In this document: positions 2,211 to 62,286 of the stretch, one piece after another
Numbering within the stretch: the stretch's first letter is position 1
Layout: the number at the start of each line of letters is the position of its first letter
Source of the DNA: Alloascoidea hylecoeti
Taxonomy: Eukaryota
Assembly: GCA_001600815.1 (NCBI GenBank)
Contig: BCKZ01000002.1
Location: 1,248,294 to 1,312,293, forward strand
Length of the DNA stretch: 64,000 bases
Reading direction: 5' to 3'
The notes under the pieces: model-generated
The model's database searches: none
Told to the model about the DNA's origin: nothing
What the model saw: only the letters and a program-made list of their open reading frames with translations
Position numbers and translations under genes: made by a program

Positions 2211-3422
2211 ATTGAATAATAATGATGTAATGCGAATGTGATTCTAGAGCTTGAGTAGTTTCATCTCTCGTCAATTGCAAGAGGTGATGACAATTGCAAG
2301 CATGATTTACTATGAGTGAGGTTACTTTAAATTTTATTTTAAATTTTCATGATCAGATAAATATAAAGCTTGGTTAGAAACAGATTGAACGATGAATTGA
2401 GTTATTCATAGGGTATTCCATAGACTGCTTTTATATAATATGTTGCTGTAACTGATATATTAATCAATTTCCACATCATTTAGTTCTTAATTATGACATC
2501 ATACATATGCATGTAATTTATATTTGAATATTATAAAAACAGCACTTCTTTTCTATTTTATTGCCTCTCATTGATCTATCTCATATATTAAATTATAAGA
2601 GCCTCTGTAATTAAATATTCACCAAAACTTAATTCTATGATCTGTGAGTTAGAACTTTAATTATTATTTCTACGTTAGATTTAGGGTAATTGCAAGGTAA
2701 GAATTAGAAATATTTTAATGGATAAAAGTCATTTGCACGCACTTTATATTATTGCTTTTCCTTATTATGTATTTCAAGCGACTGATCATGAAACTTATAT
2801 ATTAATTAAACAACTGGGAACCTAACTAATAGAGACCTATAACCTTAATAGATATTTATATCAACTACCTTTAGTTAAAATTATGTGTGCCATATTCAAG
2901 AAACATCATGATATTACAATACAATATGAAGAAAAGCATAATCATAAGTAAAGTCCAAATTTCTTCTCAAAATCTCCTTCTATTATTAAGACTGATCCTG
3001 GCCCACATTGGAAGACTGTTGAGCCTTCACTGTAGAGTCTCTTTTAATTGTTCTTTGGATTCTTTTTTCTAGCTCTATAAAGATCCTAGCTATAGTTCCA
3101 AGTCTTGCGTTCAGCAATAAATTATTTTATTTTGTTTAATCGTTATATTTACTATATTTTGCTATCTCTTTTTTTTATTTGCAAAAACTTTTGGTATATA
3201 CTATATATACAGCCAAAAAGTGGAAATAGTCAGAAAAAGCTTAGCGCCGTCCAAAATTGTTATATTTCAACCACGAATTGCAAAACTAGCAATAAATATA
3301 AATTATTCAGAATAGTAATATTAAATTCTACTTAATTCCACACTACTGATAATATATGTTCGGTGTTTTATTTTGTACATCTTGTTCTGGTGTGAGCGTT
3401 CTTTTATAACGAATTGAGCTCA

Positions 3423-4306
3423 CTAGCTTCAAGCTTCCGACACACATCTCTCTTTGGTGTCTCCAGATAATTGTGTGTAATTAGTGTCTTTCCCCTATTA
3501 GAAATCTGAATTTAACTTAGAATAGTTTTTAGAAGATCTTCGAGCACTGTGGTGGAATTACGAGATAATAAAGTTTTTTGCATCCCTTTAAAATATTTGT
3601 CCAAATGCGAAAATCATCGTTAAATATCTCATATGTTTTCAAATTTTCCAACCACGCCTCGTAAGTCCCTTTTACACACTTGATGGATTTCAATCATTCA
3701 GATAAATACTCATATAAAATGAGTTTCCTTAACTTTCTCGGTTACTTCTATCTCTTTTCCGCCTACCCAAACTGGTTCGGAGTTGAAAAGGGTGGATTCC
3801 AGTTGTTGCGAAGTCTGATCGAATATTTTTAGGGATTACTGTTTTAGCGCTTGCCTTCTGGCATATTGTAATAAAATCCGATTTTTTGAGGTCTGTGGTT
3901 ATGGGGGTTTGTTACTAGCTTCTTGTCATAGATACTATTCAACCTCCTCTAGGCGGAAAAGAGATAGAAGTAACCGAGAAAGTTAAGGAAACTCATTTTA
4001 TATGAGTATTTATCTGAATGATTGAAATCCATCAAGTGTGTGAAAGGGACTTACGAGGCGTGGTTGGAAAATTTGAAAACATATGAGATATTTAACGATG
4101 ATTTTCGCATTTGGACAAATATTTTAAAGGGATGCAAAAAACTTTATTATCTCGTAATTCCACCACAGTGCTCGAAGATCTTCTAAAAACTATTCTAAGT
4201 TAAATTCAGATTTCTAAGTTAAATTCAGATTTCTAAGAGGGGAAAGACACTAATTACACACAATTATCTGGAGACAGAGAGATGTGTGTCGGAAGCTTGA
4301 AGCTAG
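3423..4306. repeat. Long inverted repeat (foldback): arms 3423-3765 and 3950-4306, 184-bp spacer
   Basis: Arms are reverse complements with two substitutions seen, a 5-bp indel and a 19-bp tandem duplication (ttctaagttaaattcagat) in the right arm; 343 vs 357 bp. Confidence 0.97.
3786..3902 (-). mobile_element. pogo/Fot1 transposase fragment in the foldback spacer
   Basis: Translates ITTDLKKSDFITICQKASAKTVIPKNIRSDFATTGIHPF, matching the KxDF...NIxSxFxxTGIxPF block following the DDE_1 domain of Fot1/pogo transposases. Confidence 0.65.
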
Positions 4307-31091: not shown

Positions 31092-31419
31092 TGAGGAGAT
31101 AATATGTTTGAGAAGTACATTGTATGTAATCAGAAATATGAATGTATAATGTGAGTTAAATGGGAACCAGGAATAGTTGTCGCTAGCAGAGCCTTACATA
31201 ATTCCGTTTCTAAATATAATCTTTTAAGTCTATAACAGTAGTAATGATGACAGATATTTCTATTTGACAGAAATTCCAGTTGAACACATTAATCTGGAGA
31301 GAGGCAATTTTAAAGGCTCAAATTTATACTTCCATATATTATAAATATTTTGAGGTTCAAAGGTCCGACTGTTGTGAAACATAAGGCTTGTAACGACAGA
31401 ACATTCGTCACTAAATACA

Positions 31420-32290
31420 ACGACATCCAAAACGTCCTAAGACTATCTTAATCCATTTTTAGATCATATATATATTTTCTGTTCATTTCGTATTCTTATT
31501 CAAAAAAAGCTCTTCATGTACCGGAAATATTCTATAACCATTTTTTTCAGAAGGGTTGTCTTTGGAGTGATGTCAACTTAAGACTTGGCCCTGTTGTTCC
31601 TATAATCAATTCCTTAATTCGTGAAACAGATATGAGGAGAGGTTAGGGTATTATATCGCACTCTGATAGAATATGAAATCAAAGTTATGCTACTTTAAAA
31701 ATTTGCGAAACAACTATTGTAAAGCCCATGGTCAACTGCCTGAAATCAGCCACAGATCTAGAGAGCATATTAAAAATATAAAGTTCAAATGAATTTAGAT
31801 GATGTGATGGGATCATAGCAGTTGTAACTATCAACTTCAACTAGGTAGAGAATTCGAATATTAAATTAATACTTGATAAATCTCTTATTTCAGTTACTAG
31901 TACTACCAATATGTGAATTAACGGAACTTCATAAATGTTTTATCATATGTTCTATAAATGATATCCCAATAAGAGATGTCTCATTATGCTTCAAACCCAT
32001 TACATGTAAATAAACATTTTTTCTATTAATGGAATTCGAAGATATAGAAAAAGATATGGTCTAAATCTTGTCTCAAAAAGTAATCACTCAATTATTGCAA
32101 AACAAAAAGCTATCTCGGAAACCACAGGCGGCTGTAATCTTGTACATTTTCTATGGCTAGCCTAGGTTAACTTCTTTGAATTCATATAGCATGAGAGCTA
32201 TTTCACTAAAGGGGGACTTAAGGGATTGAAAGATGGAGATTATCACGCATAGCGGAAAACCCTGCGACTATTATTGATTTAAGGTTTGAA
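31420..32290 (+). pseudogene. Decayed tandem paralogue of the adjacent F-box gene
   Basis: ETDMRRG*GIISHSDRI*NQSYAT vs GRNVRRGQGGSIISHFDRVWNERHAT; VNKHFF vs ANKHFL; LVSKSNHSIIAKQKAIS vs VVSKSNGEVIASQKDFS; AISLK vs AISLK; collinear, with stops and frameshifts. Confidence 0.85.
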
Positions 32291-44249: not shown

Positions 44250-44860
44250 CTTCTAGAATTCCTTTAAGCAATATCCAGGTAATTGTAATTATAAGAAGAA
44301 ATTGTAACCAACTAAGTAGCATCTCCTCGAATTTGAGAGCCTAAAACACTTAGTGAAAGGGCGGTAAATATTCTGAGCAAAAAGCTTCCCCATGAATACG
44401 TTTGATGATCAGATTTCAAAGTTCAGCACACTAGCTATAGCACTGATATATTAAAGGCCACTCTAAGAACCCTTCTGAAAATACGTGGGAATGTATCATT
44501 TTCGGCATTTAAAAAGCCATATATGAACGAAACATAAAAATATAATCTAAAGATAGATTGGAGTGGTATTAGGAAGTTGTAGATGGTATTGTATTTAGTG
44601 ATGAATGTTCGGTCATTATAGGATCCGGATGCGGAAAAGTTTTATGTTTGACGAAAATCAGACCATATCTTTTAATCACAAAATATTTATAGTATAGGGA
44701 GCTCAGGGTCTGTAAGTCTTATGACATGGGCGGCTGGAATTTGGAAAGGATGTCATGCTAAACTGTATAAGAGTGGTCAGAAGCTTTCCACATAATGTAT
44801 AAATGAAGAAAGATCTATTTCAAAATATTGAGACCTCCTAGGAAAACATTGATAATCTGA
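44250..44860 (+). mobile_element. Decayed Tc1/mariner (DDE_3) transposase
   Basis: Ordered motifs PKTLSER (cf. GRPxxLSxR), TLRTLLKIRG...KKPYM, IVFSDECSV (44588-44614), SLMTWAAGIWKG (44715); frameshifts and stops; TIRs not found. Confidence 0.7.
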
Positions 44861-45434: not shown

Positions 45435-47165
45435 TTAGGCCCCTCTTGAATTTAAGCTTCTAATATCGATTTCACTTGAAATCGGGTTGTTTGTAGATGG
45501 CTCATCATAATTTTCTTGTATTTGGCAGTTCTTAGCCGTAGATTTCGACTGTAAATCCCCCGGGTCCTTATTGTCATGAACATCTTCCACAATTCTTTCC
45601 TTTTCTATCCAAAAGTTAACCCTGTCTGTATATTGATCAAATCCATAAATAGCAAACATAAAGATTGTCAAAAATATAACTGAAATCAGAGCTGTAAGAT
45701 GGCCTGATCTATATCTTGGTGCATTGTCACTATCCCAAGTTGTTAGGGTCACTGGTATATTCAACAAAAGATGGACTGTATTGATTGCTCCTAGAGTGAT
45801 GGCTCTCAATTGATGGTCGTGACTACTAAGCAAGTTTAGCCAGCTGACTATAATTGGCGAGCAAAATCCATTGGTTGCTTGAAGTGCATATCCAGCCCAT
45901 ATTTGTGCCGTTAATCGTGGATGAGCTAGGTCTTTAACGTTCCAATTTATAATCAAGCCTAGCCCAAGAATCCATATAAGGCATGTCAATAGTATGAAAG
46001 GTGCCATGAAACCTCGTCGTTCTCTATACAGATCTAATAGCCAGCCAGAGGACATATTAGTGACAATTCCAACTGCATTTAATATTGTGGGCCAATTTGT
46101 CCTTTCGTTAGAATTATACCCTTGTCGTTTGAGCGCTATATTCCAATACGTTCCAGGCAGGATTGCATATCCCCACAAAGTCCATGTAGGCACGAAAAAC
46201 CAAAACTGCCATGATAGAAACAACCGTTTGAAAACTGTACTGTCAAGTTTGTTGATCTGTTCCTTTGATTTGACTCTCTTTGAAGCCAATTCGATTTCCT
46301 CTTCATTCAACCACCATCTAGGCTTAGCCTGGCAAGGGATATCAGGAGTAAAGAAAAATCCAAATAGTGCTACTGGAACAGTCAAAAGCCCATCGATAAT
46401 AAATAACCATCTCCAGCCGGACATACCATTTTTGTTCTTGAAAGTGTTATTGATAGCCGTTTGAATGTAACTCGCGAACATTGTTCCAACTGTACCCGAT
46501 GATATATAAATACTTGTTCTTTTACTTAGCTCTTGAGAAGTATACCAGGACCCAAGAATATAATGTACTGCTGGCCAAATCGTACCTTCGAATATTCCTT
46601 GAAAGAATCGAAGAGCACATAATGTTTCCAAATTTTTTGCTTTACACTGCCCTACCGTAAAGCATGACCAGAATATTTCAAATAATGGAATCACTATATG
46701 AGGGTTTACTTTTGTAATAAGAATATTTGAAGGTATACCTCCTAATGCATATCCAATATTGAAACACATATTCATTAGAGGTAAAGCTCCCCCGTTATTT
46801 GTAAGATTTAACTCTTCTTCCATGCCATTCACAAAAGCAACACTTAGATTACTTTGATCCAGGTATCGAATAAAGTATGATACGCAAACATATGTTAATA
46901 TGGTCACATCTAACTTAAATACCAGTTTTTTCTCAGAGTTTGAAGTTCCTGGAGGATACCAAAAGAAAAATTTATTCTTTTTAAGTGGCGGATTTTTAAA
47001 AGTAAAATAAAATCGACATTTTTGCCTGAATGTTAATTGATTGTTAATTTCTGCTTGTAGTTGAGATGCAGTATCTGTCGACGATGGCCGGGTTGATAAT
47101 TTTTCACCAGTACTATCTATATTATGCTCATAAAGCACATTTTTCTCTTGTGTAACGTCACTCAT
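45435..47165 (-). CDS. MFS anion:cation symporter (Fen2/Seo1/Vht1/Dal5 family vitamin or anion permease)
   Basis: EKKLVFKLD..ILTY.C..YF..YLDQSN...AFV.GM.EEL, LGSWYT..EL.KR, GMSGWRWLFIIDG, APRY..G. Confidence 0.9.
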   Translation of the reverse strand: MSDVTQEKNVLYEHNIDSTGEKLSTRPSSTDTASQLQAEINNQLTFRQKCRFYFTFKNPPLKKNKFFFWYPPGTSNSEKKLVFKLDVTILTYVCVSYFIRYLDQSNLSVAFVNGMEEELNLTNNGGALPLMNMCFNIGYALGGIPSNILITKVNPHIVIPLFEIFWSCFTVGQCKAKNLETLCALRFFQGIFEGTIWPAVHYILGSWYTSQELSKRTSIYISSGTVGTMFASYIQTAINNTFKNKNGMSGWRWLFIIDGLLTVPVALFGFFFTPDIPCQAKPRWWLNEEEIELASKRVKSKEQINKLDSTVFKRLFLSWQFWFFVPTWTLWGYAILPGTYWNIALKRQGYNSNERTNWPTILNAVGIVTNMSSGWLLDLYRERRGFMAPFILLTCLIWILGLGLIINWNVKDLAHPRLTAQIWAGYALQATNGFCSPIIVSWLNLLSSHDHQLRAITLGAINTVHLLLNIPVTLTTWDSDNAPRYRSGHLTALISVIFLTIFMFAIYGFDQYTDRVNFWIEKERIVEDVHDNKDPGDLQSKSTAKNCQIQENYDEPSTNNPISSEIDIRSLNSRGA

Positions 47166-48699
47166 ATATATATATCTTTGAACGGTATATATAGCTTATG
47201 ATTTAATTGAAGGGCAAGTTATTTATATAAGAATTTAGACGAATCCGCCAAAAAAGAACCCAAAAAACTTTTCAAGGAAAAAACCTTCCCTCTTGAAATT
47301 AAAGAGGAACTAAGTTATTTGGTTAAAGTTTCTAACTTCATGGATATATATAAAATTTAATCACAATTGGCCAGGGGTTGAAAGACCGCATTGTACGCCC
47401 TGATCAACAGCAATTGCATTTTCCAAGTAATTTAATTTTTGCTGATCAGTTATTCCATATGATTTAGGCATGTGGCTTCGGGCCAGTTGTGGGGGGGGTG
47501 TTATATTCTCTCGCGCTTATTTATTATATAAGATAAGATAGGTAGACCGCACGGCGCACATACATATAAAATCTTTCCTACGTATATGCCCATTAGCTAT
47601 AACCTTATTTAATATATATTTTAAAAGAATAATACATAATAACTCTGATCACCATTATCATCGATATCCCTTTCGAATTCAATTGAAATGAAAGTGGAAA
47701 GCTGTTAGCAATCTGACGGGGCTTTTCTGATAAAAACTACAATATTCCTAATCCTTATAATTACATTATACCTTTAAGGTTTAAAAACATATCCACTAAA
47801 TTACATTTGCGACACTATACGTTCAACAAATTTTGAAATAATTTTTGTGGTATTATACAATTGAATTTTGTGTAGTTTGTATTAATATTCATGCATGTAC
47901 CAATGATTAAGCTCATGCGCATGCTAGGAAAAAACATAGGAAAGTCTAGTGTATAGCTCATACCGTTAGACTTTCAATAGGCATATGATATTAATATCGT
48001 ATTTCTACGATACTATTTTTCTTTAAATAACGGAGATCTATAAATTCTATAATTACTATAGATAGTGTAATGGTATATGTTCTTCAAGAATCAAGACTTC
48101 AAAATTTTCTGAAAATTCGTAATAAAATTAAAAAAATATGTATAGGCCTACATATATGTAAGACTTAAGTATTTTCACAGATCGTGGAGAACCAGATAAT
48201 GTCTTCATCAGGCACCTTGTCGAAGACTTTTTCATATTTGTAGGCAAATCACCGATCAGGTTATAAGTCCACCAGGTGCATGATATCTTTTGCCGCTGGC
48301 ATCACACACTATCTGATTAACTACAACTTTTTATCATGAGTGGCTTTTCAAGTGTGTTAGTTCCAATCTGAGGCTCGTTTATTCTCGGGTGGGATGTTCA
48401 TCTTATCTTTTAACTTGTTAATGATAATACTATAGTACTATACTGGTCGATTTGAAATCAGATGTGATATTTTTTTTTTTTGATGATCTTAGCTAGTATT
48501 CTTTTCCTTTTATACATATTATAAAAAAATTGGTCTTTTTGAATTCGGCGTGATTGGGACTCTGTTATTGAGTTTTATGGATCACTTTTTTTTGGAGATA
48601 TATTTACATAGAGTTTGAACTTTAATGAAGGGGCGCCAGAGCTCGCCGCTTGGACACAATACATAAATTTGTAAACCTCGTATTTTCTTTCTCCACTCC

Positions 48700-49430
48700 A
48701 CAATCCCTGAAAAGTGTAATGAGTAAAAAAGCTTAAGGCCTCTTAGCTTGCATTAAGGAGCAAGGAGGGTAGAATGGTTTAATGTTTTGAACAAATGACA
48801 CTCGAACCGAATACATCAATTTCAAAGATCACTAACGAAAACGGATATTCGTCGGGGGTAATAGACTAAAAAAACTAATTGTTCACAAAGATTGAGGATG
48901 GGACTTACTTATCCATTGGTTTTGCTGGGCTAGAATGTGTGTGGGCATTGATATGGAAGCGTTTTACCACATGGTGGATGATAACAATCCCAGGACGCGC
49001 CCCACTACCAAGACAAAAGCCACCCACACGAAATGCCAACGGACAGTATATGAACTCAAATGGATGTTAAGTTTGCTTGATAGGAATTCACGAATGGACG
49101 GTCATATGATGGAGGGATCCTGCACCAACCGCGGGGTTGTAATGAGGACATTGAGGAGTACTCCACAGAAGCTACAATGATTTGATTACTTCTCCTATAA
49201 GAGTAATTGTTTGGTGAACAGCAGAAGAGGTCAAATTAAAAGTGTCCGCAAGCCTTCAAAAGAAGGTCAAAAAAAGCTTAACAGCTGGGTGAAAAAATTT
49301 TACAACACATTGGCGGTAATAAATAGGATATATGGTGGTAGAATATAAGTATATATTCAAAGAAAAAAGATGATCGTACTTAAATTTAAGTTGTATGGTT
49401 CAGATGGTGTCCAAGAGTCCTTCATTGCCT
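48700..49430 (+). pseudogene. Decayed coding relic, possibly a MULE transposase
   Basis: GC-elevated overlapping short frames (TKIEDGTYLSIGFAGLE; FDYFSY...WVKKFY; QESF) loosely follow MULE motif order. Confidence 0.3.
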
Positions 49431-49726
49431 AAACTCAATGAAAGTTACCCTAAATCTTGTAATTAGCAAGCGGTATAATACATAGATTTATATCTATAAT
49501 TAGCTTGCATGTACACATTGTTACAATGCTGTATCAGTCGTTTATAATAATAAATCCAATTTCAATTGTAATTTTTCATAGACATCTCAGATATATATAG
49601 TTTGTATGTGAAACTTTACCACATCGATCAATAATCCATAGAAGTTTAAAGAAGGTTATTATTATTTTATTTACACAACTATAACACTAGTAAACTTTCT
49701 TGACTTTTGTTTTTTCCCGTGAAATT

Positions 49727-51335
49727 TATGATATAATTGTATTATCTAATACTTTGACATAGGTATTTCCACACCTCTCAATTCATTAAAAACTTTAGTT
49801 GTAGATAAATCGCCTCCAAACTTTCTCTTACCAATATTCAGATCATTGGTTACAAAATTATTAACATCAGCAACGAAATAATCATTACCAAGCATCATTC
49901 CAAGGTGACTTTTCCATTTGTTGAAAGGAATTAAACCTTTATCATAACCAGCTAATAATGAAGTAATTATTGATCCAGCGGTTCCACCTGTCTGTCTTGC
50001 GCCTCCTGCTGCTTTTATAGCAGGATAATCATTAATATCACCAACCGCAAATATATGGTGGTGCCCTGGAACAGTAAGATAATCATCAATTATTATTTTT
50101 TTTTCGGAATTTAGGATTGGCTTCAGTTCAGTTCTTGCAATTATATCTGTGTTTGGTTTAGCTCCGGTGGTCCAAATCTAAAAAAAGAATTAGTAAACAT
50201 TAATAATAAGTTTCAAGTTAAGTAACATACGGTTAAATCACTATTGTATTTATCACCATCTGTTGTAATAACAACTTTATTATCTTTATCATCAGTTTTG
50301 ATTCTCTTATTCAAGATAACATTAACACCCATTTGTAATAAGGTAAGATAAGTAAGTTTCTTAAAAGTTTCAGAAAGATCTGGCTCTGGAGGTAAGAACC
50401 CATGAGGATGGATCAAAATAGTGTTCTTATTTGGGTGTTTATGTTTGATCTCAGCTGCAACTTCAATACCAACGGCACCTATAATATATATGTGGTCAGA
50501 ATCATACAATGTTGCAATGGTTCTTGAAATGTATATAATCGAGAAACTTACCTCCACCAACAACTACAACATCTTTAGCATCATTAATAGCATTCCCATA
50601 TTTTTCACAATTCTTAACATAAGATTCGTAGGAATATTCTCCTTTAGAAGGATCTAGAGGAGCAGGTCGAGATAGACCAGTAGCCACCACTGCGACATCA
50701 AAGTTTAATGTTTGTTCTTCTGAATTTACTTGTTCAGTCTCTTTGTTTAACTTTTTAAATATCAGTTTATTTTCATGTAATTTAGTAGCAAAACCTCTGA
50801 TATGAGTTAAATCTTTCCCGAGATGATTCCTATAAGCAGGAATGTCATCAAACTTTAGGTAAGTCTTGCTACCAAAGTTGGCATCGGTGATAGCACGCGG
50901 TAATGCAATAAGGTTAATAAAACCATTTTTTGGTTCAATGAGTGTAACATGAAGTTCATGACCTTTTGGTAATGGACTTTTCTCTAGTGTTTCGAAAATA
51001 GATCTTAACGCACTAACACCTGAAAAAGAACCACCGATAATTGCAACGTTAATTATTGGTTTGTCTTTGATATTATGAAAAGTAGACAAAATTGCGTCAT
51101 GAGTAGGGCCAGGAGTAAAAGATCCACCCCTACCACCACGAGAAGGTTTTTGAAGTGATCCGGCAGATGCCAAATTTAATTCCGAGATTTGCTTAGTGAT
51201 CTCTTCACTCGTAAGTTTGGCCATTGTATGATTTTCTCTTAAGCTTCTAATTGTAAATAAAGTGGTAATTGGAGTATTAATTGATTTCAAAAGATGAAGA
51301 GAACGGCCTTTATATAGTCGCAAACTCTGTCGCAT
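49727..51335 (-). repeat. Left arm of 1,609-bp inverted repeat (pairs with 57449-59057)
   Basis: Reverse complement of 57449-59057; one difference seen (50984/57800, Glu/Lys). Confidence 0.97.
49746..51224 (-). CDS. AIF/AMID(FSP1)-like FAD/NAD(P)H oxidoreductase, copy 1 (3 exons, about 450 aa)
   Basis: IIGGSFSG, AVVATG, spliced VVGGGAVGIEVAAEIK, WTTGAKPNT, IFAVGD; ATG downstream of TATATAAA. Confidence 0.9.
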
Positions 51336-52552
51336 ACTAATGATTTAAATAATAGTAAAATTTAGTAAATCGTGAGGTGACCGGCATTTCCATTTCTTTT
51401 ATATCTTCTTTTATTAGTGGTTGAATTCCGGGGTTAGCTCGTCAGATATCGGCGTTAAAAAGTCATCGGATGCACATACGGATAGGCTGCAGCTATGATG
51501 AGATTGGCTTGGTGACAAGTTGGTGTGCTCTGAGACGAAATATTCACGCTTCTACGGTGCGGTACCAATTTTATATTCCAAACGGAAATTTAAATAATCA
51601 TTATCAAAACCTCTTCCTATATGTATCTTACATACATCAATGAATCCATTAAGGCTATTTTTGATCCGAAGGAAGAGGCCATCATGATGATGTTAGAGAA
51701 AAAAAAGAGGAAAATGATATGGTTCTAAGTTCAAAGCTACATTTGGGTTTGATAAACCTTCTAAAGATACTCTTCTTTTTTTCACCTGACAATCTGGAAG
51801 GCGTGCTTTGTTGTCGGACTCAGCTGCTAGATTCAATGGTTACGAGAATATTGCAGTGTACCCTGGCTCGTCGAATGAATGGTCTACAAAAATCTAAGTG
51901 AAAGGCAATTCTATAATATAAGCAGACGGTATCTCTCTATATAATGCCGAAATAATCAATTAAAGTTCTATAACATTTAACTAATGCTAATATAATGTTA
52001 CTGTGCATAACTTAAGCTAATGAATAACCTAAGGTTATAGTTGTAATAACTAGATGTTCGATACCCGAGCCATAGCTATAGATCCCATATGGTATATATA
52101 CCTTTGAGATCCATTTTCTCTTGGCTTTTTCTCCTATGTTTGTTACTCTAATTGGCTATAAATTATAATTATCTCTTGTAGTAAGATAGTATTGCCATTA
52201 TCTTCTTTTAATTTGAAGGTGGCCTAACCGCTCGAACTTTGTTCATCATTTAGTAACTATAAGAGATCTCTGGGAATTTGTACTTATCTTCGTTTGAAAC
52301 GGACATCCCATGATCATGTTTCCTTTTCTCTCACTGAGTAGTTATTAGGATTAGATATAAAGTCAGGAGTAATAATCAATCGATGTTCTGGTCAGAGGAG
52401 TGACTCTTATCCACAAACTTCCTTAAACTTTGATATGGTTAGTAATTAGCATGTATTTGCTAATATTTACGTAATATACACCCTAATATCAGAAATAAGT
52501 TCTTCTTCATCATTCGCATTCATTCTCATATCACTCTCATATCAACGATATT

Positions 52553-54525
52553 ATGGCTGAAGTACGGCCAAGAGTGTATCTTTACTACCAATCTCGCGAT
52601 GTAAGCCTAGAAGGGAAACTTGTCATTGAATTATTTGATAAAGAGGCACCCAAAACAGCTGAAAAGTATACATCTTATTTTATTGTTACAATAATAAAAT
52701 TGATGCTAACACATGTTTAAATTTCTAGCTTCAGAGCACTATGTACTGGAGAACTGGGCAGAAATGAAAAGGGTGTGGAACTTACCTATGAAGGTAGTGT
52801 CTTTCATCAAATTGTTGCTGACTTTTTGATTCAAGGGGGTGATATAGCTAATCACGACGGAACAGGTATGAACGACATAAAGACATAATTTCATTTTCAA
52901 AATTTTCAATTGTCTTTACTGATGATTAGCTGAATAGGATTGGAGTCAATATATGGTGGTGTCTTTCCAATGGAGGATCCAACATGGAGAGAAATCGATG
53001 CACCGGGTTTAGTATGTGCTTCGAATGCAGAGAATCAGACAAGTAGTCATTTCTTTATAAATGTAAGTATATCTATACATTTAATGGCTTATTCTTTCTT
53101 TCCTAACCTACTGAAAATACTCAGATGGTTCCTTTCTATCCTGAATATCCAACTTTATGTGGTAAATACACTGTCTTTGGAAAGGTAATCGAAGGTTTGG
53201 ATTCTCTTTTTAAATTTAATTCAATTAAAACAGATAAAGATGATAAACCACTACCAGGACAAGAAGTTGAAATCGTCAAATGTGGTCAATTGAAATTTAA
53301 AGAAAAATCAACTCCCATATTGATTCCTAATCCCAAGTCACTCGTGAAAGTTAAAAGCGAAGTTAAAAATGAACCATGGGATCCAAAAAAAGGTGGTAAC
53401 ATCTTTAAAGGAGGGAAAACAGTTGGAACCGAACTCTCTTTAGTTAAAGCTGAAAATTTCGGAACGAAACCAAAAGACAAATTTGAAGACGATAAAAAAA
53501 ATATACAACTTATTCCTCCTAACACACCTCCCCTCAATCCAATCGACCCACAAAACTATGAAAGAGAAAGCCCCACATCAAGCCCTAGTTCATCAGGAAG
53601 TTTAGGGGGGAGTCCTAGAAGTACGGCTTTCAATGGAACTTACAACTTGCCTGCTTTTGTCATACCAGATCCTAAGGGAGAGATGACGAACAAAGAACGT
53701 CAAGCTGTCTTAGATATCGATGGTTTCAGAGAAGATGGTTATTACAATGGTAAAGATGAACCAAATGATTACTACGATAATCAAGCTGTTGGTTCTTATG
53801 GATACAATAATAACCAACAAAGTAATTACAGAAATGACCAAATATCAAGCTACAGTGGAAACAGTAACCAACAAAGGGGTTACAGAAATGACCAGATCTC
53901 AAGTTACAAAGGAAATAAAAAAAGCATACCATCGAATTATAAAGAACCTAGTAAACAACTTGTCAAAGTTTCAGGTAAACCAAAACCTCGCTATTCCGAT
54001 TCCAGTTATGACGACTCAAATTATAATAAGGTGTTAAGTCGTGAGGTTGTACCTAGTGACACTAAAAACGACAAAACTGTTAACTATAGAGATAGTACAG
54101 ATAGAGATCTCAGAGATACCATGGATTCTAGGGATTCTAGGGATTCTAGAGAATTGAGTGATTCTAGAGATGTACGGAATCCCAGAGATGTTAGGGATAA
54201 CTACCGAGTCTCTAAAGATGATACACCCCCGAGTTATAAGCACAAGCCAGTGGCGCCTACAGATTTCAGTACGTTATATAGGAGTTCTGCAAGAGGGACG
54301 TTAAGATCAAAACTGTCTAGCTCACAAAGAGGGGGTAGAGGTTATGGTGACTACGATGATTATGATGATTATGATAACTATTATGGTCGAGATCGAGGGG
54401 GCTTTAGTTATAGTAGTAGAGGAAGAGTGCGTGATTACGATGATAGTTATGGTTCTAGACGTGGTGGAAGGGGTAGAAGAGAGTCAAGAGGTCAAAGTGG
54501 GCGAGGCTACAGGCCTAGGAGATAA
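52553..54525 (+). CDS. Cyclophilin-domain protein with long RD/RS/RG-rich tail; exons 52553-52665, 52729-52865, 52938-53062, 53125-54525
   Basis: PKTAENFRALCTGE, FHQIVADFLIQGGD, GTGLESIYG, SHFFI, TVFGKVIEG after in-frame splicing. Confidence 0.88.
53812..53917 (+). repeat. Intragenic 54-bp (18-aa) tandem repeat, 2 copies
   Basis: NQQSNYRNDQISSYSGNS / NQQRGYRNDQISSYKGNK; 9-bp DSR repeats follow near 54124-54170. Confidence 0.85.
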
Positions 54526-54682
54526 CTTTTAAATGTATTTATTAATATATGGAAACCTGTGTATAATTAAAAATCTTGCTTTGTAGTCTCTTTAAAACTT
54601 ACGGCTCTTTATAAATTAAGTTGTGGGAACCATTATTATACTCTATAATATTGGTGAAATTTTACATCTAATTAATTTGATA

Positions 54683-55984
54683 TTAAAATCCTCGTCTTTC
54701 CAAATTATTGGCAATATCTAGATAAAAAGCGACAGCATCAAATTTCGGTTTTTGTCCAGTAAACCTAGAATATTGTAATTTGATTACATTTGTCCACTTT
54801 AATTTTTTAGAAAAGAGAAGTTAGTATGTATACATTGTATAGTCCAATTTATAATACTGATGGGGTATTAAAGTACTCACGTTAATTAGGTCAAGGTGGT
54901 CAACATTATCAAGCGTTCCTAAGTATTTTCCCCACTTAGAAGAAGTAACTGAAACCATTCCATCATTATCACCTTCAATGCCATATACAACGTTCCATGA
55001 TATCTTGAACACATTATACCAATTTGGGACAAATTTTGAGCCATAACTAAAGTATTGAATTCCTTCTCTATCAAGCACCTTTTCATTAAAAATTTTCATG
55101 GAAGAAGTAGTTAATTCTTTCAAACCTTCTGGTATAGCATTTTCCGGTACACCCGTTTTCTTTAGAATGTCATAAACATAGTCAGCCATTGGACTACCCC
55201 TATGAGGAGTACCAATTGTAGTAAGAGAAGCAATTTCAACATTCTTTGGTTTAAGATTTGAGATTAAATAACGGCAATCCAGACCACCCATGGAGTGAGC
55301 GATCAAATTAACTTTGACTATATCTTCTTTTTCTATTTTCGAAGTTGGGCCGTTTTCCGAATTAGGTATATCATTTGCTTCTTCCTTATGATTTACATTA
55401 TATACATCATGGACTTTTTTACCTTTAAGTTTCTCAATGCTTTTTGCTATATGCTCACTAAGGATTCCAGCACGATTTTCAATGGATCCCAATGGTGGCA
55501 CTTTCGCCGTGATAATGGTTGCTCCATGATCTCTTAAAGCATCTTCTACCCCTCTCCAATAAGGTAATTGCAAAGATTTTGGGAGAGGGATAAATGTCGG
55601 GGACGGAAGAATCTTAAAGAAATCTGTTCCAAGAAAACCATGACATAATACAATTGGCTATAATTGAAAAATATAGTAGATGTTAAAATGAGTGGTTCAA
55701 ATATAAGTAAGAGTCCAATTGCATACATATTTCGGGGCCTTATAACTCTTCAATATATCCATGAATTTATCCGAAATCAGAATATCACCTTCATTGGTTT
55801 TCGAGAAATTGGACTTTATGTGAGTGTTATGAAGACATCTGATTGAATTCCGAAAAGTCGAACCCAAATATTCTGGTTTTTTAGATCTTGTAATTATATG
55901 TATTTCTTTCAATGGTTTCCGTTTTAAACCCTGTAACAATATAGAAGCATCAATGCGAGGAATTGATCTTGTTATATAAATCAT
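54683..55984 (-). CDS. TGL2: Mitochondrial triacylglycerol lipase; exons 55984-55727, 55657-54881, 54796-54683
   Basis: KYPIVLCHGFLG, LIAHSMGGLDCR, TPHRGS, NDGMVSV.S.KWG, VDHLDLINW, FYLDIA..L...GF. Confidence 0.9.
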
Positions 55985-56145
55985 CTGGTCAACCGTTTTA
56001 TAAAATTGGAAGATTTCGTATCATGGAGCAAGAGTATTCAGTTATAAAATTTAAACTTATATATTAGTGTAAATATTTCAAAATAAAGTTCTGGATCCAT
56101 AACACCTCTTCAACAGCATCACGAAAACGTTCAAATACTAACACA

Positions 56146-56466
56146 ATGAAGGTGACGCTAAAGCAATGGAACACAACTGGAATATGGACCTGGGATGTTC
56201 CAAATGAAGAAGTGTGTGGTATCTGTAGGGTTCCTTTTGACGGTGTTTGCCCTACTTGTAAATATCCTGGAGATGGGTGTCCTTTGAGTAAGTGTCATAG
56301 ACTCGGACAACAATAATGAACTCTCTAACTTATATTTATAGTTGTTGGAATCTGTGCTCATGCTTTCCACTTACATTGTGTAACTAAATGGCTAGAAACG
56401 GAAACATCCAAAGGACTATGTCCTATGTGCCGACAAGAATTCAAAGTAGCTCCACCACTTTCTTAA
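56146..56466 (+). CDS. APC11: Anaphase-promoting complex RING-H2 subunit; exons 56146-56287, 56342-56466
   Basis: WTWDV..EEVCGICRVPFDGVCPTCKYPGDGCPL|IVGICAHAFHLHC..KWL...GLCPMCRQ; absent from ORF track. Confidence 0.95.
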
Positions 56467-57448
56467 TAACGAAAACAATCTACCTGTGAATTATAAATAA
56501 GCCTCAGGGCATCTATATACTGAGATTATTGGGAAGCTTTCCACAATCTAGTTTGATTGCATTTTAAAGCATAATTAATATTTGTTTACACTCATTCATT
56601 CACCAATAACTATTATACTACCTCCATCGACGAATATCATTGATTTTCTTATTGGTACTTTTAATTAACTTATACAATTGTACAACGAATTTTGAGATTT
56701 GAAGAATTAAATCGGATGCATCCTCAAGATCTAGATATATGTGACCTTTAATAATTAGGTTATCGAGTAAAGGTCAATTGCACAATTAAACATAGGTTAC
56801 ATCAGTGAAATGATACAGTGAATTATGATCAGTTAATCATGGTATTAGTTACTAGTAATACAATTTAAATAATGAAACAGTCTATTTATAGGTATGAGTC
56901 TCGACTCTATATTTAGAATCATACCTCTTTTTACTGGAATTATACCGTCCCTCATAGAATTGTTCCAGTTAGATTTTTGTGGACTATTTATTCCATGAGC
57001 CAGTATACACTGCAATATCTATTCGCAGTCATTAGATCTAGCAGTTGAGTCCGACAACATAGCACGTCACCCAGATTGTCGGGTGAAAACACAGTGTTTC
57101 CCCTAATTTGTATCATTATGAAGCCGAATATAAAATGAATATTTCTGTCGTATGGTCGATAGTTGAATATTCTCGAATATTTGTGGATCGAATGGCCGAA
57201 ATTAAATGGAAGAACTGTATATCTGAAGATGTAGCGCTAAAACTATTATCAACGATTTATCGTACTGTAGAAGAGCGAATGATTTCGTCTTGCTGCACAA
57301 CATAGCAGCTTGTCCGTTACATCCGATAACTTTTTAACACCGATATCTAACGGCATGGGTAACGTAAGTGCAGAATTGAACGGCTAGTAATAGAAGATAT
57401 AAAAGAAGCTCAAATGTCTTTAATCCTATTATCAATTAAACCATTAGC

Positions 57449-59057
57449 ATGCGACAGAGTTTGCGACTATATAAAGGCCGTTCTCTTCATCTTTTGAAAT
57501 CAATTAATACTCCAATTACCACTTTATTTACAATTAGAAGCTTAAGAGAAAATCATACAATGGCCAAACTTACGAGTGAAGAGATCACTAAGCAAATCTC
57601 GGAATTAAATTTGGCATCTGCCGGATCACTTCAAAAACCTTCTCGTGGTGGTAGGGGTGGATCTTTTACTCCTGGCCCTACTCATGACGCAATTTTGTCT
57701 ACTTTTCATAATATCAAAGACAAACCAATAATTAACGTTGCAATTATCGGTGGTTCTTTTTCAGGTGTTAGTGCGTTAAGATCTATTTTCGAAACACTAA
57801 AGAAAAGTCCATTACCAAAAGGTCATGAACTTCATGTTACACTCATTGAACCAAAAAATGGTTTTATTAACCTTATTGCATTACCGCGTGCTATCACCGA
57901 TGCCAACTTTGGTAGCAAGACTTACCTAAAGTTTGATGACATTCCTGCTTATAGGAATCATCTCGGGAAAGATTTAACTCATATCAGAGGTTTTGCTACT
58001 AAATTACATGAAAATAAACTGATATTTAAAAAGTTAAACAAAGAGACTGAACAAGTAAATTCAGAAGAACAAACATTAAACTTTGATGTCGCAGTGGTGG
58101 CTACTGGTCTATCTCGACCTGCTCCTCTAGATCCTTCTAAAGGAGAATATTCCTACGAATCTTATGTTAAGAATTGTGAAAAATATGGGAATGCTATTAA
58201 TGATGCTAAAGATGTTGTAGTTGTTGGTGGAGGTAAGTTTCTCGATTATATACATTTCAAGAACCATTGCAACATTGTATGATTCTGACCACATATATAT
58301 TATAGGTGCCGTTGGTATTGAAGTTGCAGCTGAGATCAAACATAAACACCCAAATAAGAACACTATTTTGATCCATCCTCATGGGTTCTTACCTCCAGAG
58401 CCAGATCTTTCTGAAACTTTTAAGAAACTTACTTATCTTACCTTATTACAAATGGGTGTTAATGTTATCTTGAATAAGAGAATCAAAACTGATGATAAAG
58501 ATAATAAAGTTGTTATTACAACAGATGGTGATAAATACAATAGTGATTTAACCGTATGTTACTTAACTTGAAACTTATTATTAATGTTTACTAATTCTTT
58601 TTTTAGATTTGGACCACCGGAGCTAAACCAAACACAGATATAATTGCAAGAACTGAACTGAAGCCAATCCTAAATTCCGAAAAAAAAATAATAATTGATG
58701 ATTATCTTACTGTTCCAGGGCACCACCATATATTTGCGGTTGGTGATATTAATGATTATCCTGCTATAAAAGCAGCAGGAGGCGCAAGACAGACAGGTGG
58801 AACCGCTGGATCAATAATTACTTCATTATTAGCTGGTTATGATAAAGGTTTAATTCCTTTCAACAAATGGAAAAGTCACCTTGGAATGATGCTTGGTAAT
58901 GATTATTTCGTTGCTGATGTTAATAATTTTGTAACCAATGATCTGAATATTGGTAAGAGAAAGTTTGGAGGCGATTTATCTACAACTAAAGTTTTTAATG
59001 AATTGAGAGGTGTGGAAATACCTATGTCAAAGTATTAGATAATACAATTATATCATA
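57449..59057 (+). repeat. Right arm of 1,609-bp inverted repeat
   Basis: Reverse complement of 49727-51335. Confidence 0.97.
57560..59038 (+). CDS. AIF/AMID(FSP1)-like oxidoreductase, copy 2; exons 57560-58232, 58306-58553, 58607-59038
   Basis: Same motifs as copy 1; exon lengths sum to 1353 nt (450 aa plus stop). Confidence 0.9.
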
Positions 59058-59663
59058 GGAAATATTTGGAGGAAACAATAAAATAATTCATTCAAAGAAA
59101 CTTGAAGAATAAAATTTGTAGAGTCGTTGTTGTTTATAAGGTTTAAATAACTGAGATTAAAGGAACTTAAAAATAAAGAAACATGAACATAGTAGCTACA
59201 AAGTTATATGCATACTATAGCTATACTGGCAGTAGAAACAGTTTTAATTAGATACATGTAGTTATATTAGTAGGTTAAAATGTATTTTTTTGTTTCGAAT
59301 TCGCAAGCGACTGGAATTTTATTTTTTTAAGTTTAAAGATTGAGACCATTGATTATCGATGTGGTACAATTTCACATAAATTTTGCGATTCGCTTATAAA
59401 GACGTAATATCAGTTATAGATATTGTATAAGTTACACATACAAAGAAGATACTTAGAGATACATGTTTTTTCCAATGTACCAAATTTACTATTCTCATAG
59501 ATAATTGATAGACGCATAGTTAATTATAACAAGTAGGCCATCACATCACGGTGAAACATTTCCAATAACACCTCCTTCATTTGATTCATATTTACAATAT
59601 GCTTTTAACATGAACATTTTAGCAAAAGTTAGCATTCCCAATGCTAAATTGTAAGGCTAAGCA

Positions 59664-60110
59664 TCAAGACTGATGAGGTTCGGGACAATATCTACTAATA
59701 TGTCCTGGAGTTCCACATCTATAACAAGTCTTGATTTCGGGATTCTCACAACTTTTAGATGTACAATCACGACTGATATGACCGTATTTTCCACAAGCAT
59801 AGCACCTAACTGAGTCAGCTAAGCAGTCTCTGGAAAAATGATTAGGACCACCACATTTATAGCAAATCGGACCCTTTATATATGGCCCATATCTATTACC
59901 TTCACCTTGATTGCTAGAAGAATTAGGACAATTACGAGATAAATGCCCCAATTTCCCACAATTGTAACAACTTGGTGCCCCTCTTCCACCCGTTTCTCTT
60001 GGGAGAGGGCAATTTGGTTGAATATGACCCATCATTCCACAATTGTAACACTTTCTAATGGTAGAGCTACTACCAGAATTTTCGCCATTAGAAGAGCCAG
60101 CGTATGACAT
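59664..60110 (-). CDS. GIS2: CCHC zinc-knuckle nucleic-acid-binding protein (Gis2/Byr3/CNBP family)
   Basis: Five CX2CX4HX4C knuckles incl. CYKCGGPNHFSRDC and CYACGKYGHISRDC. Confidence 0.8.
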   Translation of the reverse strand: MSYAGSSNGENSGSSSTIRKCYNCGMMGHIQPNCPLPRETGGRGAPSCYNCGKLGHLSRNCPNSSSNQGEGNRYGPYIKGPICYKCGGPNHFSRDCLADSVRCYACGKYGHISRDCTSKSCENPEIKTCYRCGTPGHISRYCPEPHQS

Positions 60111-62286
60111 TGAAGTTTATAGAATTTTCAGGAGAAGAATATATGATTGATCTGTTGCTTAATCTTTTATTACTTATTGAATCTTCCACACCTAACTCTC
60201 CACAACACAGACCGAGAGAAATAGGACCAATGTAAAATAATACTTAGTAATGAAAACTAGTACTGATAATACCAGGAGGGTAAAAAGTAATTAATTTGTA
60301 ATTTATAGGGGGTCTTAAAAGAATAGTATACTTTACCCGGATGTAATATTTCCATTGAAGATAGAATATCAAATAATAGGGAAGGAGTATAATAATTCAT
60401 TATGAACCAGCTTTATTTAAATCTTTATTTTTAATATTAATTGATTGAATATAAAATTCTGAACAACCTCCAAATAGAACCCTTCCAGCGGTCAGATATT
60501 GATTAATCAATTCACTATCCATACACAGCATTGAATGAATCCCACCCACAGTTATAAAATTTGGTTTAATTAAAAATCTTTAATTAAAATGAATTATAGA
60601 AATAATATTCAAAACATGTGAAACTACCAAACCAAGAGAAATATATCATGTTTGAATAATACTGTAGTATATATGATTAGTAGCTATGGCCAATTTCACT
60701 ATTGCAATGTTTTTTTCTATAATAGTAACTATAGCTATCATTTATTTATAGGATTGCTAGTTTTGATACTTTATAAGAAATACCTATACACAAAATGAAT
60801 TCATTTGCTATATCCTTAGCAAAAGTTGTAGAACCAAAGCCATCGACATTTTAAATTAACATGAAGGTAAAACCAGGAAGAATGTTATTATGACCGTGCT
60901 AGGCATTATAGTGAGAATTGTGATTAAAGACTTCCTGTTTACAAAACGGTAAAACTCTTCCCAAAGTACTAGTACAAGTCAATGTTTGCATGAGAAACGG
61001 TTTATTCAGGTTTGATTCATATTTTCCGCTTTTAATGTTTGTGGTAGCATTGACCAGTTGTTTTTGGAAGTTTAATTTGCAGAGTCTCATTTAGGGCTAA
61101 TGGTTTATGCAAAAAGAGTCGTGACATTTACGCCATAAAAATAATTGGTATTTAAGGAAGAAAAATTTTACAGAACACATTTTGCAACCTCATGTTTCAT
61201 CGGTCTGAAATTTTTAGTAATTGGTAAGTCTTTGTTAACCAACGTCTTGGGAAGATATGGATTGCTGTGATTATTAGTTTATTACCAATTGTTCCTACTG
61301 AATCATTTTGTTGACAACACACTATATGTTAAGTTTCAGCCTTGTATGAGCTCTTCTATATTTTCCTAAGCCGTGAACCGAGTTTTTAAAAGGATTATTG
61401 CTAACAGTTTTATTTTACAGGGTAACTACCTATATTTTTAAATTGGTATATGCATTGGAATTTGGATGAAGAAACCAGGTCGACCGGGCGGTCATAGTTA
61501 ACCTTTATTCTCACCAGTTTACTGGTAAAAGCGATCATGTGTACAATTTTTGATTGTGGGTTTAAAGAGATGATGATTTCGTGTACTGACTTATTCATCA
61601 TATTACCAATTCTGAATGCTTCATTTGATGATATATTAGCTAACCAATTGCTGATAGTGATGAATTATACCCTTGACTTGTTGCTAGTCTCACAGATTAT
61701 GGTAGGTTATTTCTCCTTTCTAGTTTGCATAAGACTCTTGTATTTGTTGCAATGATGATTAACCTATATTCACACTGTCGGAGTTTTCGATGAATTTACA
61801 CAAAATACTGATTTAATGACTCTGAGGCTACATTTACAAGAGTGCTTATGCAATTTAATATTTTGTGGTTTATAAGCTTGATTGCTGACATTAACTGTTT
61901 ATTTAGAATCATTGAGAATAGCGTTATGCATCGCCAGTTTGAGCCCTGCTTCGATTCATTTTTAGATTTATAGTTCTAATATATGCACACCTGTACAATT
62001 CTAAATCAAGACCATCATTAATGTGAAATTGTAATTTTGTAGAAACACCCATAATTGGCGGGATAGTTGTATTCTTAACCTTAAGCTATTTTAATTATTA
62101 ATGTGACATGTAACAAAGACTCAAGATGGGATATTGAAAATTAATGCTTGCGCCTAGATGTTATATGCTTAATTAAAAGTTATAGGTCGTATTACCTGAG
62201 ACAGTAATTCTAAATCACAACAAGGTTTCTGATGAATAAAACCTCCTAGTTTCTCTCCTCCTTCGACATACTTAAGCACTATATTT

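Follow-up and report, generated by a model that had tools for sequence, protein, structure and literature searches.

Two outward-facing, near-identical copies of an oxidoreductase gene lie on either side of three housekeeping genes in the yeast Alloascoidea hylecoeti (GenBank genome assembly GCA_001600815.1). They form the arms of an inverted repeat within the 64,000-nucleotide stretch analysed here (contig BCKZ01000002.1, forward-strand positions 1,248,294 to 1,312,293; hereafter the window). The locus raises the question of whether the enclosed cassette is inverted by recombination between the arms and, if so, whether this happens as a programmed switch, as in mating-type (MAT) flip/flop systems, or by accident. 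In our best reading, the cassette would be a passive recombination substrate like the flip/flop (FF) region of Saccharomyces chromosome XIV (chrXIV) rather than a mating-type-style switch: unregulated, flipping rarely on evolutionary time scales and almost without effect. We assign this reading a probability of roughly 0.6. As regards architecture, the proposal of the preliminary description that the arms are a substrate for inversion by homologous recombination is valid.

An old inverted duplication with a homogenised core

The arms, delimited by self-BLAST and by an ungapped base-by-base comparison, are located at 49727–51335 (minus strand) and 57449–59057 (plus strand). They are complementary over 1,609 bp, introns included, with exactly one mismatch, as had been reported. 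Each arm contains 111 bp upstream of the ATG with a TATA box (at 57468 in the right arm), the whole 450-codon gene and 19 bp downstream of the stop codon. The left gene (49746–51224, minus strand; introns 50479–50551 and 50178–50230) is a mirror of the right gene (57560–59038, plus strand; introns 58233–58305 and 58554–58606); the two introns (73 and 53 bp) are identical between the arms, and 256 non-coding bases contain no difference at all. The sole mismatch pairs 50984 with 57800 and falls in codon 81, which encodes Glu in the left gene and Lys in the right one (E81K); the site is 351 bp away from the inner edge of the arm. Read in gene sense, there is a G at 50984 and an A at 57800 (plus strand), and since G is common to all three intact paralogs, the A is the new letter. 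The spacer (51336–57448) is 6,113 bp long, and the 27 bp directly inward of the arms (51336–51362) hold seven further mismatches. With a self-BLAST score of 2,979 bits, this is the one large inverted repeat of the window; the best inverted match in each of five shuffled windows scored 32–38 bits.

Homology continues past the arms, which the preliminary description missed, both in the promoters (to about −700) and in a 31-bp 3′ block. The left upstream region (51336–51914, minus strand) is an old homologue of the right one (56954–57448, plus strand), with 77–79% identity in two blocks (120/151 and 130/169 positions) and an unalignable block (79/170) between them. The left copy keeps a middle block common to three dispersed paralogs; in the right copy this block (about −460 to −320) was replaced or is heavily diverged. 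The right 3′ flank (59058–59378, plus strand) has the ancestral form common to the paralogs on contigs C22 and C1. In the left 3′ flank (49605–49726, minus strand), ca. 200 bp of ancestral flank is missing directly after the arm end, and homology resumes at the 31-bp block (49605–49635 with 59348–59378).

The promoter blocks are ca. 22% diverged, which is close to the 24% (39/160) by which the arm gene differs from its C22 paralog at fourfold sites, and the arms differ at 0.06% of sites (1/1,609; 95% range 0.002–0.35%). By this disparity, the pair is old and its core was overwritten recently by gene conversion. In a tree, the left and right arm genes are sisters with 100/100 support. The outer end of identity coincides with the ca. 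200-bp deletion in the left flank and the inner end lies where indels begin, as expected for a conversion tract.

The same family provides sister cases. It has at least seven copies in the genome: the two arms, a single copy on C22, a pair on C5, and a decayed copy each on C1 and C5. Since all of them carry homologous upstream DNA, the family spreads by DNA-level duplication. The pair on C5 is a second outward-facing inverted pair (C5:1193607–1198036), separated by 1.5 kb; its conversion tract of 1,065 bp contains two differences and identical introns, and its ends are only 74–84% identical per 100 columns. Nearby, at C5:1199658–1204590, there is a direct tandem pair of what are presumably flavin monooxygenase (FMO)-like genes, 92% identical overall and 81–100% per 100 columns, with one stretch of 96–100%. 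Homogenised neighbour genes are common in this genome in either orientation.

Proposed crossover, a possible past inversion and the case for a fixed orientation

We propose the following course of events. An old DNA-level duplication of a unit of ca. 2.5 kb, comprising the upstream region, the intron-bearing gene and the 3′ flank, would have generated two copies that face outward at a distance of 6 kb. Recently, non-allelic homologous recombination between them, favoured by their proximity, would have replaced the sequence of one by that of the other; the tract begins a little upstream of the TATA box, extends 19 bp beyond the stop codon and ends where indels break the homology. Whenever an event of this kind is resolved by crossover or template switching, the enclosed three genes would be inverted. 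The old duplication, its recent homogenisation and the sister cases can be read from the sequence comparisons themselves; crossover and flipping are steps that we infer. There is precedent for them in Saccharomyces: Salzberg et al. 2022 (PMC9731477) propose conversion with occasional crossover for the chrXIV region, and PMC8748988 shows that inverted repeats in S. cerevisiae undergo conversion and inversion spontaneously.

A flip would carry each inner gene along with its own promoter and end, so that only the upstream regions and 3′ flanks of the arm genes would be re-paired. The earlier statement that each upstream region would be joined to the other 3′ flank holds from the map, and the flanks do differ between the sides. 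The promoters had been placed inside the cassette, which is correct for the two upstream regions but not for the TATA box, which lies within the arms. A flip changes little, as the two proteins are alike but for one residue; there may be a small effect on 3′ end formation.

The dispersed paralogs hint, weakly, at a past flip. They side with the left copy in the middle promoter block (C22, 54:15; C1, 56:17; C5c, 51:9), and over the first 230 bp beyond the arm those on C22 and C1 resemble the right copy (z of 11.4 and 11.1, vs. −0.1 and −0.9 for the left). They thus point to an ancestral unit in which the promoter was left-type and the 3′ flank right-type, as a flip would pair them. This pattern would fit a history in which one copy was conserved, the other decayed, and inversion then took place an odd number of times. 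We consider it probable that the cassette has flipped in the past, and probably it can still flip now and then by accident; that both orientations are present among living isolates has, in our estimate, slightly less than an even chance.

A number of points weigh against this reading. Two independent changes, one per copy, would explain the pairing equally well in the same number of events and with no flip; the pattern would also be the same had a single inversion accompanied the birth of the duplicate. In the remaining promoter blocks, A and C, the paralogs favour neither the left nor the right copy (p from 0.12 to 1). The evidence of homogenisation comes from a single genome. Contigs of four public runs (X1–X4) were placed on the cassette, the right arm and the right flank; none of them spans an arm and no flipped molecule was seen among them, and the orientation given for the cassette is that of the assembly. 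Finally, in the survey of other inverted repeats described below, none of the three repeats encloses whole unrelated genes, and thus a multi-gene layout was not found to be common. The C5 pair is no clean control for the flip trace: the right arm matches C5p more at both ends (13:4 and 35:16), which is not the case for C22 (11:7 and 28:28).

The most serious alternative is that the pair is homogenised but fixed. Conversion would then have proceeded without crossover, perhaps for dosage, and the orientation would be unchanged since the pair arose, possibly by one duplicating staggered-break inversion. The available evidence is indeed for conversion and not for inversion. According to PMC9731477, about 4% of conversions in the chrXIV region cross over and both orientations segregate, yet no flip was recorded in ca. 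53,800 mitoses and 950 meioses. Staggered breaks, as presented by Ranz et al. 2007 (PMC1885836), yield inverted gene duplications at the ends of an inversion, and the resulting arrangement, a segment bounded on either side by inverted copies of a gene, is the one found here. That model explains the birth of such a pair but not its near-identity; in the present case the flanks are ca. 22% diverged and the core was re-homogenised.

A candidate scar of this type is present elsewhere in the genome. We surveyed 600 kb from three contigs (C1, C3 and C4) and found three near-perfect kilobase inverted repeats, all of them gene-bearing and outward-facing. At C1:415116–420446, the 3′ 870 bp of a gene that we take to be SEC24-like from its translation is copied in reverse, at 99–100% identity, across 3.57 kb holding the 5′ part of the gene; by its sequence, this arrangement looks like an inversion-breakpoint duplication and lends some support to a fixed orientation at our locus. 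The other two are near-perfect palindromes, one with two outward-facing copies of a 307-aa open reading frame (ORF) at C1:407539–410436 and one with a 262-aa ORF pair at C3:408727–410575, the latter with 19 N in its centre and possibly an assembly artefact. Extrapolated by hand, there would be about 120 such repeats per genome (range roughly 25–360), among which a multi-gene cassette is the less common layout. Two minor inverted repeats occur in the window itself: one at 3423–4306, whose arms of ca. 350 bp (perfect over 268 bp) enclose 184 bp, and a decayed one (67–78%) in non-coding DNA, 31331–31486 with 44523–44700, 13 kb apart.

Two considerations make a fixed orientation the less likely reading in our view. 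The full 1.6-kb tract dates from the last 1–2% of the history of the pair, which suggests many conversion events, each with its own chance of crossover, and nothing in the cassette obviously bars the other orientation.

Less likely readings: assembly artefact, programmed switching and centromere function

Could the repeat have been created by the assembly, through one gene copied to two places or diverged copies collapsed under one consensus? There are grounds for asking. The 5,292 N in 200 kb of C3 indicate that the assembly is probably a short-read one, and inverted repeats differing by 1 nt have been inflated by assemblers before, according to PMC6692504. Runs X1–X3 may be the source data of the assembly, and contigs lose rare variants. 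Against an artefact stands the depth of the arm pieces: it is 20.2, 17.5 and 19.5 in X1 (10 for single copy), 111, 107 and 128 in X2 (61 for single copy) and 23 and 18 in X4 (ca. 7.5 for single copy). Depth is thus roughly doubled in X1 and X2 and two to three times the single-copy value in X4; in X3, a 549-nt piece reaches only 29.6, near the single-copy depth of 20–27, and another piece reaches 46. All four arm junctions were found, the right inner one in four of the four runs and the left inner, left outer and right outer ones in three each; the left inner and right outer ones are absent from X4, which at its depth of ca. 7 proves nothing. Contigs of X1, X2 and X4 read G at 57800 and those of X3 read A, so both letters exist in sample S2. 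The arm pieces listed agree with the window at every other site. X4 differs by one other letter in its listed pieces, and the four runs look like one sequence type and therefore do not constitute a strain comparison. To the extent that contigs allow a judgement, the inverted repeat is not an assembly duplication, and we regard an artefact as very improbable.

The preliminary description took mating-type switching in Ogataea and Komagataella as a model, and one may envisage a programmed, signal-induced flip/flop switch outside MAT that alters the expression of the oxidoreductase or of the inner genes. A stress or developmental signal would then invert the cassette often enough to change which of the upstream regions drives the copy whose 3′ end is intact; the C5 pair would likewise make chimeric enzymes. 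The dimensions are suitable: arms of 1.6 kb and a cassette of 6 kb are near those of Pachysolen MAT (2-kb arms, 8-kb region), and the FF1/FF2 systems of Ogataea polymorpha, Komagataella phaffii, Pachysolen and Ascoidea rubescens also consist of a kilobase inverted repeat around a multi-gene segment that is inverted by arm recombination (Krassowski et al. 2019, PMC6692504). A kilobase near-identical inverted repeat flanks the region here too, and its upstream regions and 3′ flanks do differ between the sides.

The resemblance to MAT flip/flop systems is in geometry only. Instead of MATa and MATα at its ends, the region holds genes for a cyclophilin, a lipase and APC11, in agreement with its earlier designation as a non-MAT cassette. 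The only match in the genome to PF04769 (MATalpha1), the alpha-box gene being the only MAT gene searched for, is on another contig, C8, beside SLA2-like sequence. In the 40 kb examined around it, no large repeat pair was found besides an 817-bp palindrome (C8:361867–362683, 98%), about 5.6 kb from the MATalpha1-like gene. Between the cassette and the closer contig end lie ca. 440 kb; there are genes on both sides and no sign of a repression site. Its arm proteins differ by one residue and have a common TATA box, and the direct FMO-like pair, which is unable to invert, was homogenised likewise. The arms are whole genes and not short recombination sites of the Flp/FRT kind; PF05202 (Flp-type recombinase) gave no match in the genome, but control genomes were equally silent, which makes this search uninformative. 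Since the cassette lacks MAT genes, nothing points to a silencing domain and the proteins differ in one residue only, and with inner genes that have their own promoters and ends, the mating-type model does not suit this locus, and passive inversion of the chrXIV type is preferred. A programmed switch is highly doubtful, and so is its signal-driven form; if true, it would be a case of a yeast using DNA inversion for phase variation in an FSP1-like oxidoreductase family.

The last and least likely candidate is an inverted-repeat centromere of the Komagataella type. Such centromeres have gene-free cores of about 1 kb; the core of our repeat holds three intact genes, APC11 included, and its arms are intact genes as well.

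Gene content and significance of the cassette

The arm gene encodes a predicted FAD/NAD(P)H oxidoreductase, as judged by PF07992 (matched by both copies) and by a language-model search. Its nearest representatives are FAD/NAD(P)-binding proteins of Ascoidea rubescens, Pachysolen and Babjeviella and a chytrid “apoptosis-inducing factor 2”. A profile built from exon 1 and 13 relatives matched FSP1/AIFM2 structures best (E = 1e-57), with other folds far behind (2e-23); the profile is dominated by the relatives, which makes the link to FSP1 indirect, and exon 1 alone matched FSP1 only at E = 0.17. The arm protein thus has the PF07992 fold of the AIFM2/AMID/FSP1 family, with FSP1 as the nearest solved relative via the profile, but it is only about 30% identical. 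On these sequence comparisons, the AIF/AMID-like label given to the arm genes is fair. A word-based protein search with exon 1 retrieved none of 2,566 candidates, and two metagenome scans gave no confirmed relative in either case. No tRNA genes were found in the window and no Rfam match in 47000–61000, and therefore the arms are not built on tRNA genes.

Two further observations concern other members of the family. Decayed copies at C1:1750862–1751577 and C5:1110536–1111291 retain up to ca. 900 bp of alignable upstream DNA. The C22 paralog (2283–3131 of the C22 stretch examined) carries, close to its N-terminus, ca. 57 inserted residues of RGG-like Gly/Arg repeats, an expansion of the RGGRGG motif present in the arm gene.

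Of the three inner genes, the cyclophilin gene (52553–54525, plus strand; PF00160) has four exons and about 592 codons, with a long low-complexity Arg/Asp/Gly-rich tail. It is followed by an alpha/beta-hydrolase lipase gene (54683–55984, minus strand; two introns) and an APC11 RING-H2 gene of 88 aa (56146–56466, plus strand; intron 56288–56341; PF12861); exon maps were drawn for all three. The earlier assignments of cyclophilin and APC11 were confirmed. For the lipase, hydrolase families support the fold, and the name TGL2 goes beyond it; we take the gene to be TGL2-like, with its identity tested only to the level of the hydrolase fold. For a neighbouring MFS gene, only relatives at 33–40% were found besides itself.

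The nearest known counterpart of the cassette is the chrXIV FF region (PMC9731477). There, ordinary non-MAT genes lie between near-identical gene-containing arms that are kept alike by conversion, and short reads collapse the arms into one sequence of doubled coverage, from which the orientation cannot be read. The present locus likewise has near-identical gene-containing arms around single-copy genes, and its arms are homogenised by conversion rather than newly duplicated. The chrXIV region is a 24-kb block near the centromere with 4.2-kb arms, sporulation genes and a proven polymorphism; here the segment is 6.1 kb, the 1.6-kb arms are one AIFM2-like gene of a dispersed family, and a polymorphism is only proposed. 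In the literature covered, mostly open-access articles without their supplements, we found no AIF-like inverted pair and no other non-MAT fungal flip/flop besides this one.

The assembled orientation of such blocks should be regarded as unverified in short-read genomes. Our understanding of switching would stay unchanged unless flipping proves inducible. Since the ends of the C5 pair differ in protein sequence, a crossover there would yield chimeric enzymes. If both orientations of the cassette exist, it would be a second, much smaller yeast case of chrXIV-type recurrent inversion, and one of a size convenient for PCR. The A. hylecoeti genome seems to be rich in outward-facing converted pairs, and it may thus be well suited to measuring how often gene conversion flips DNA.

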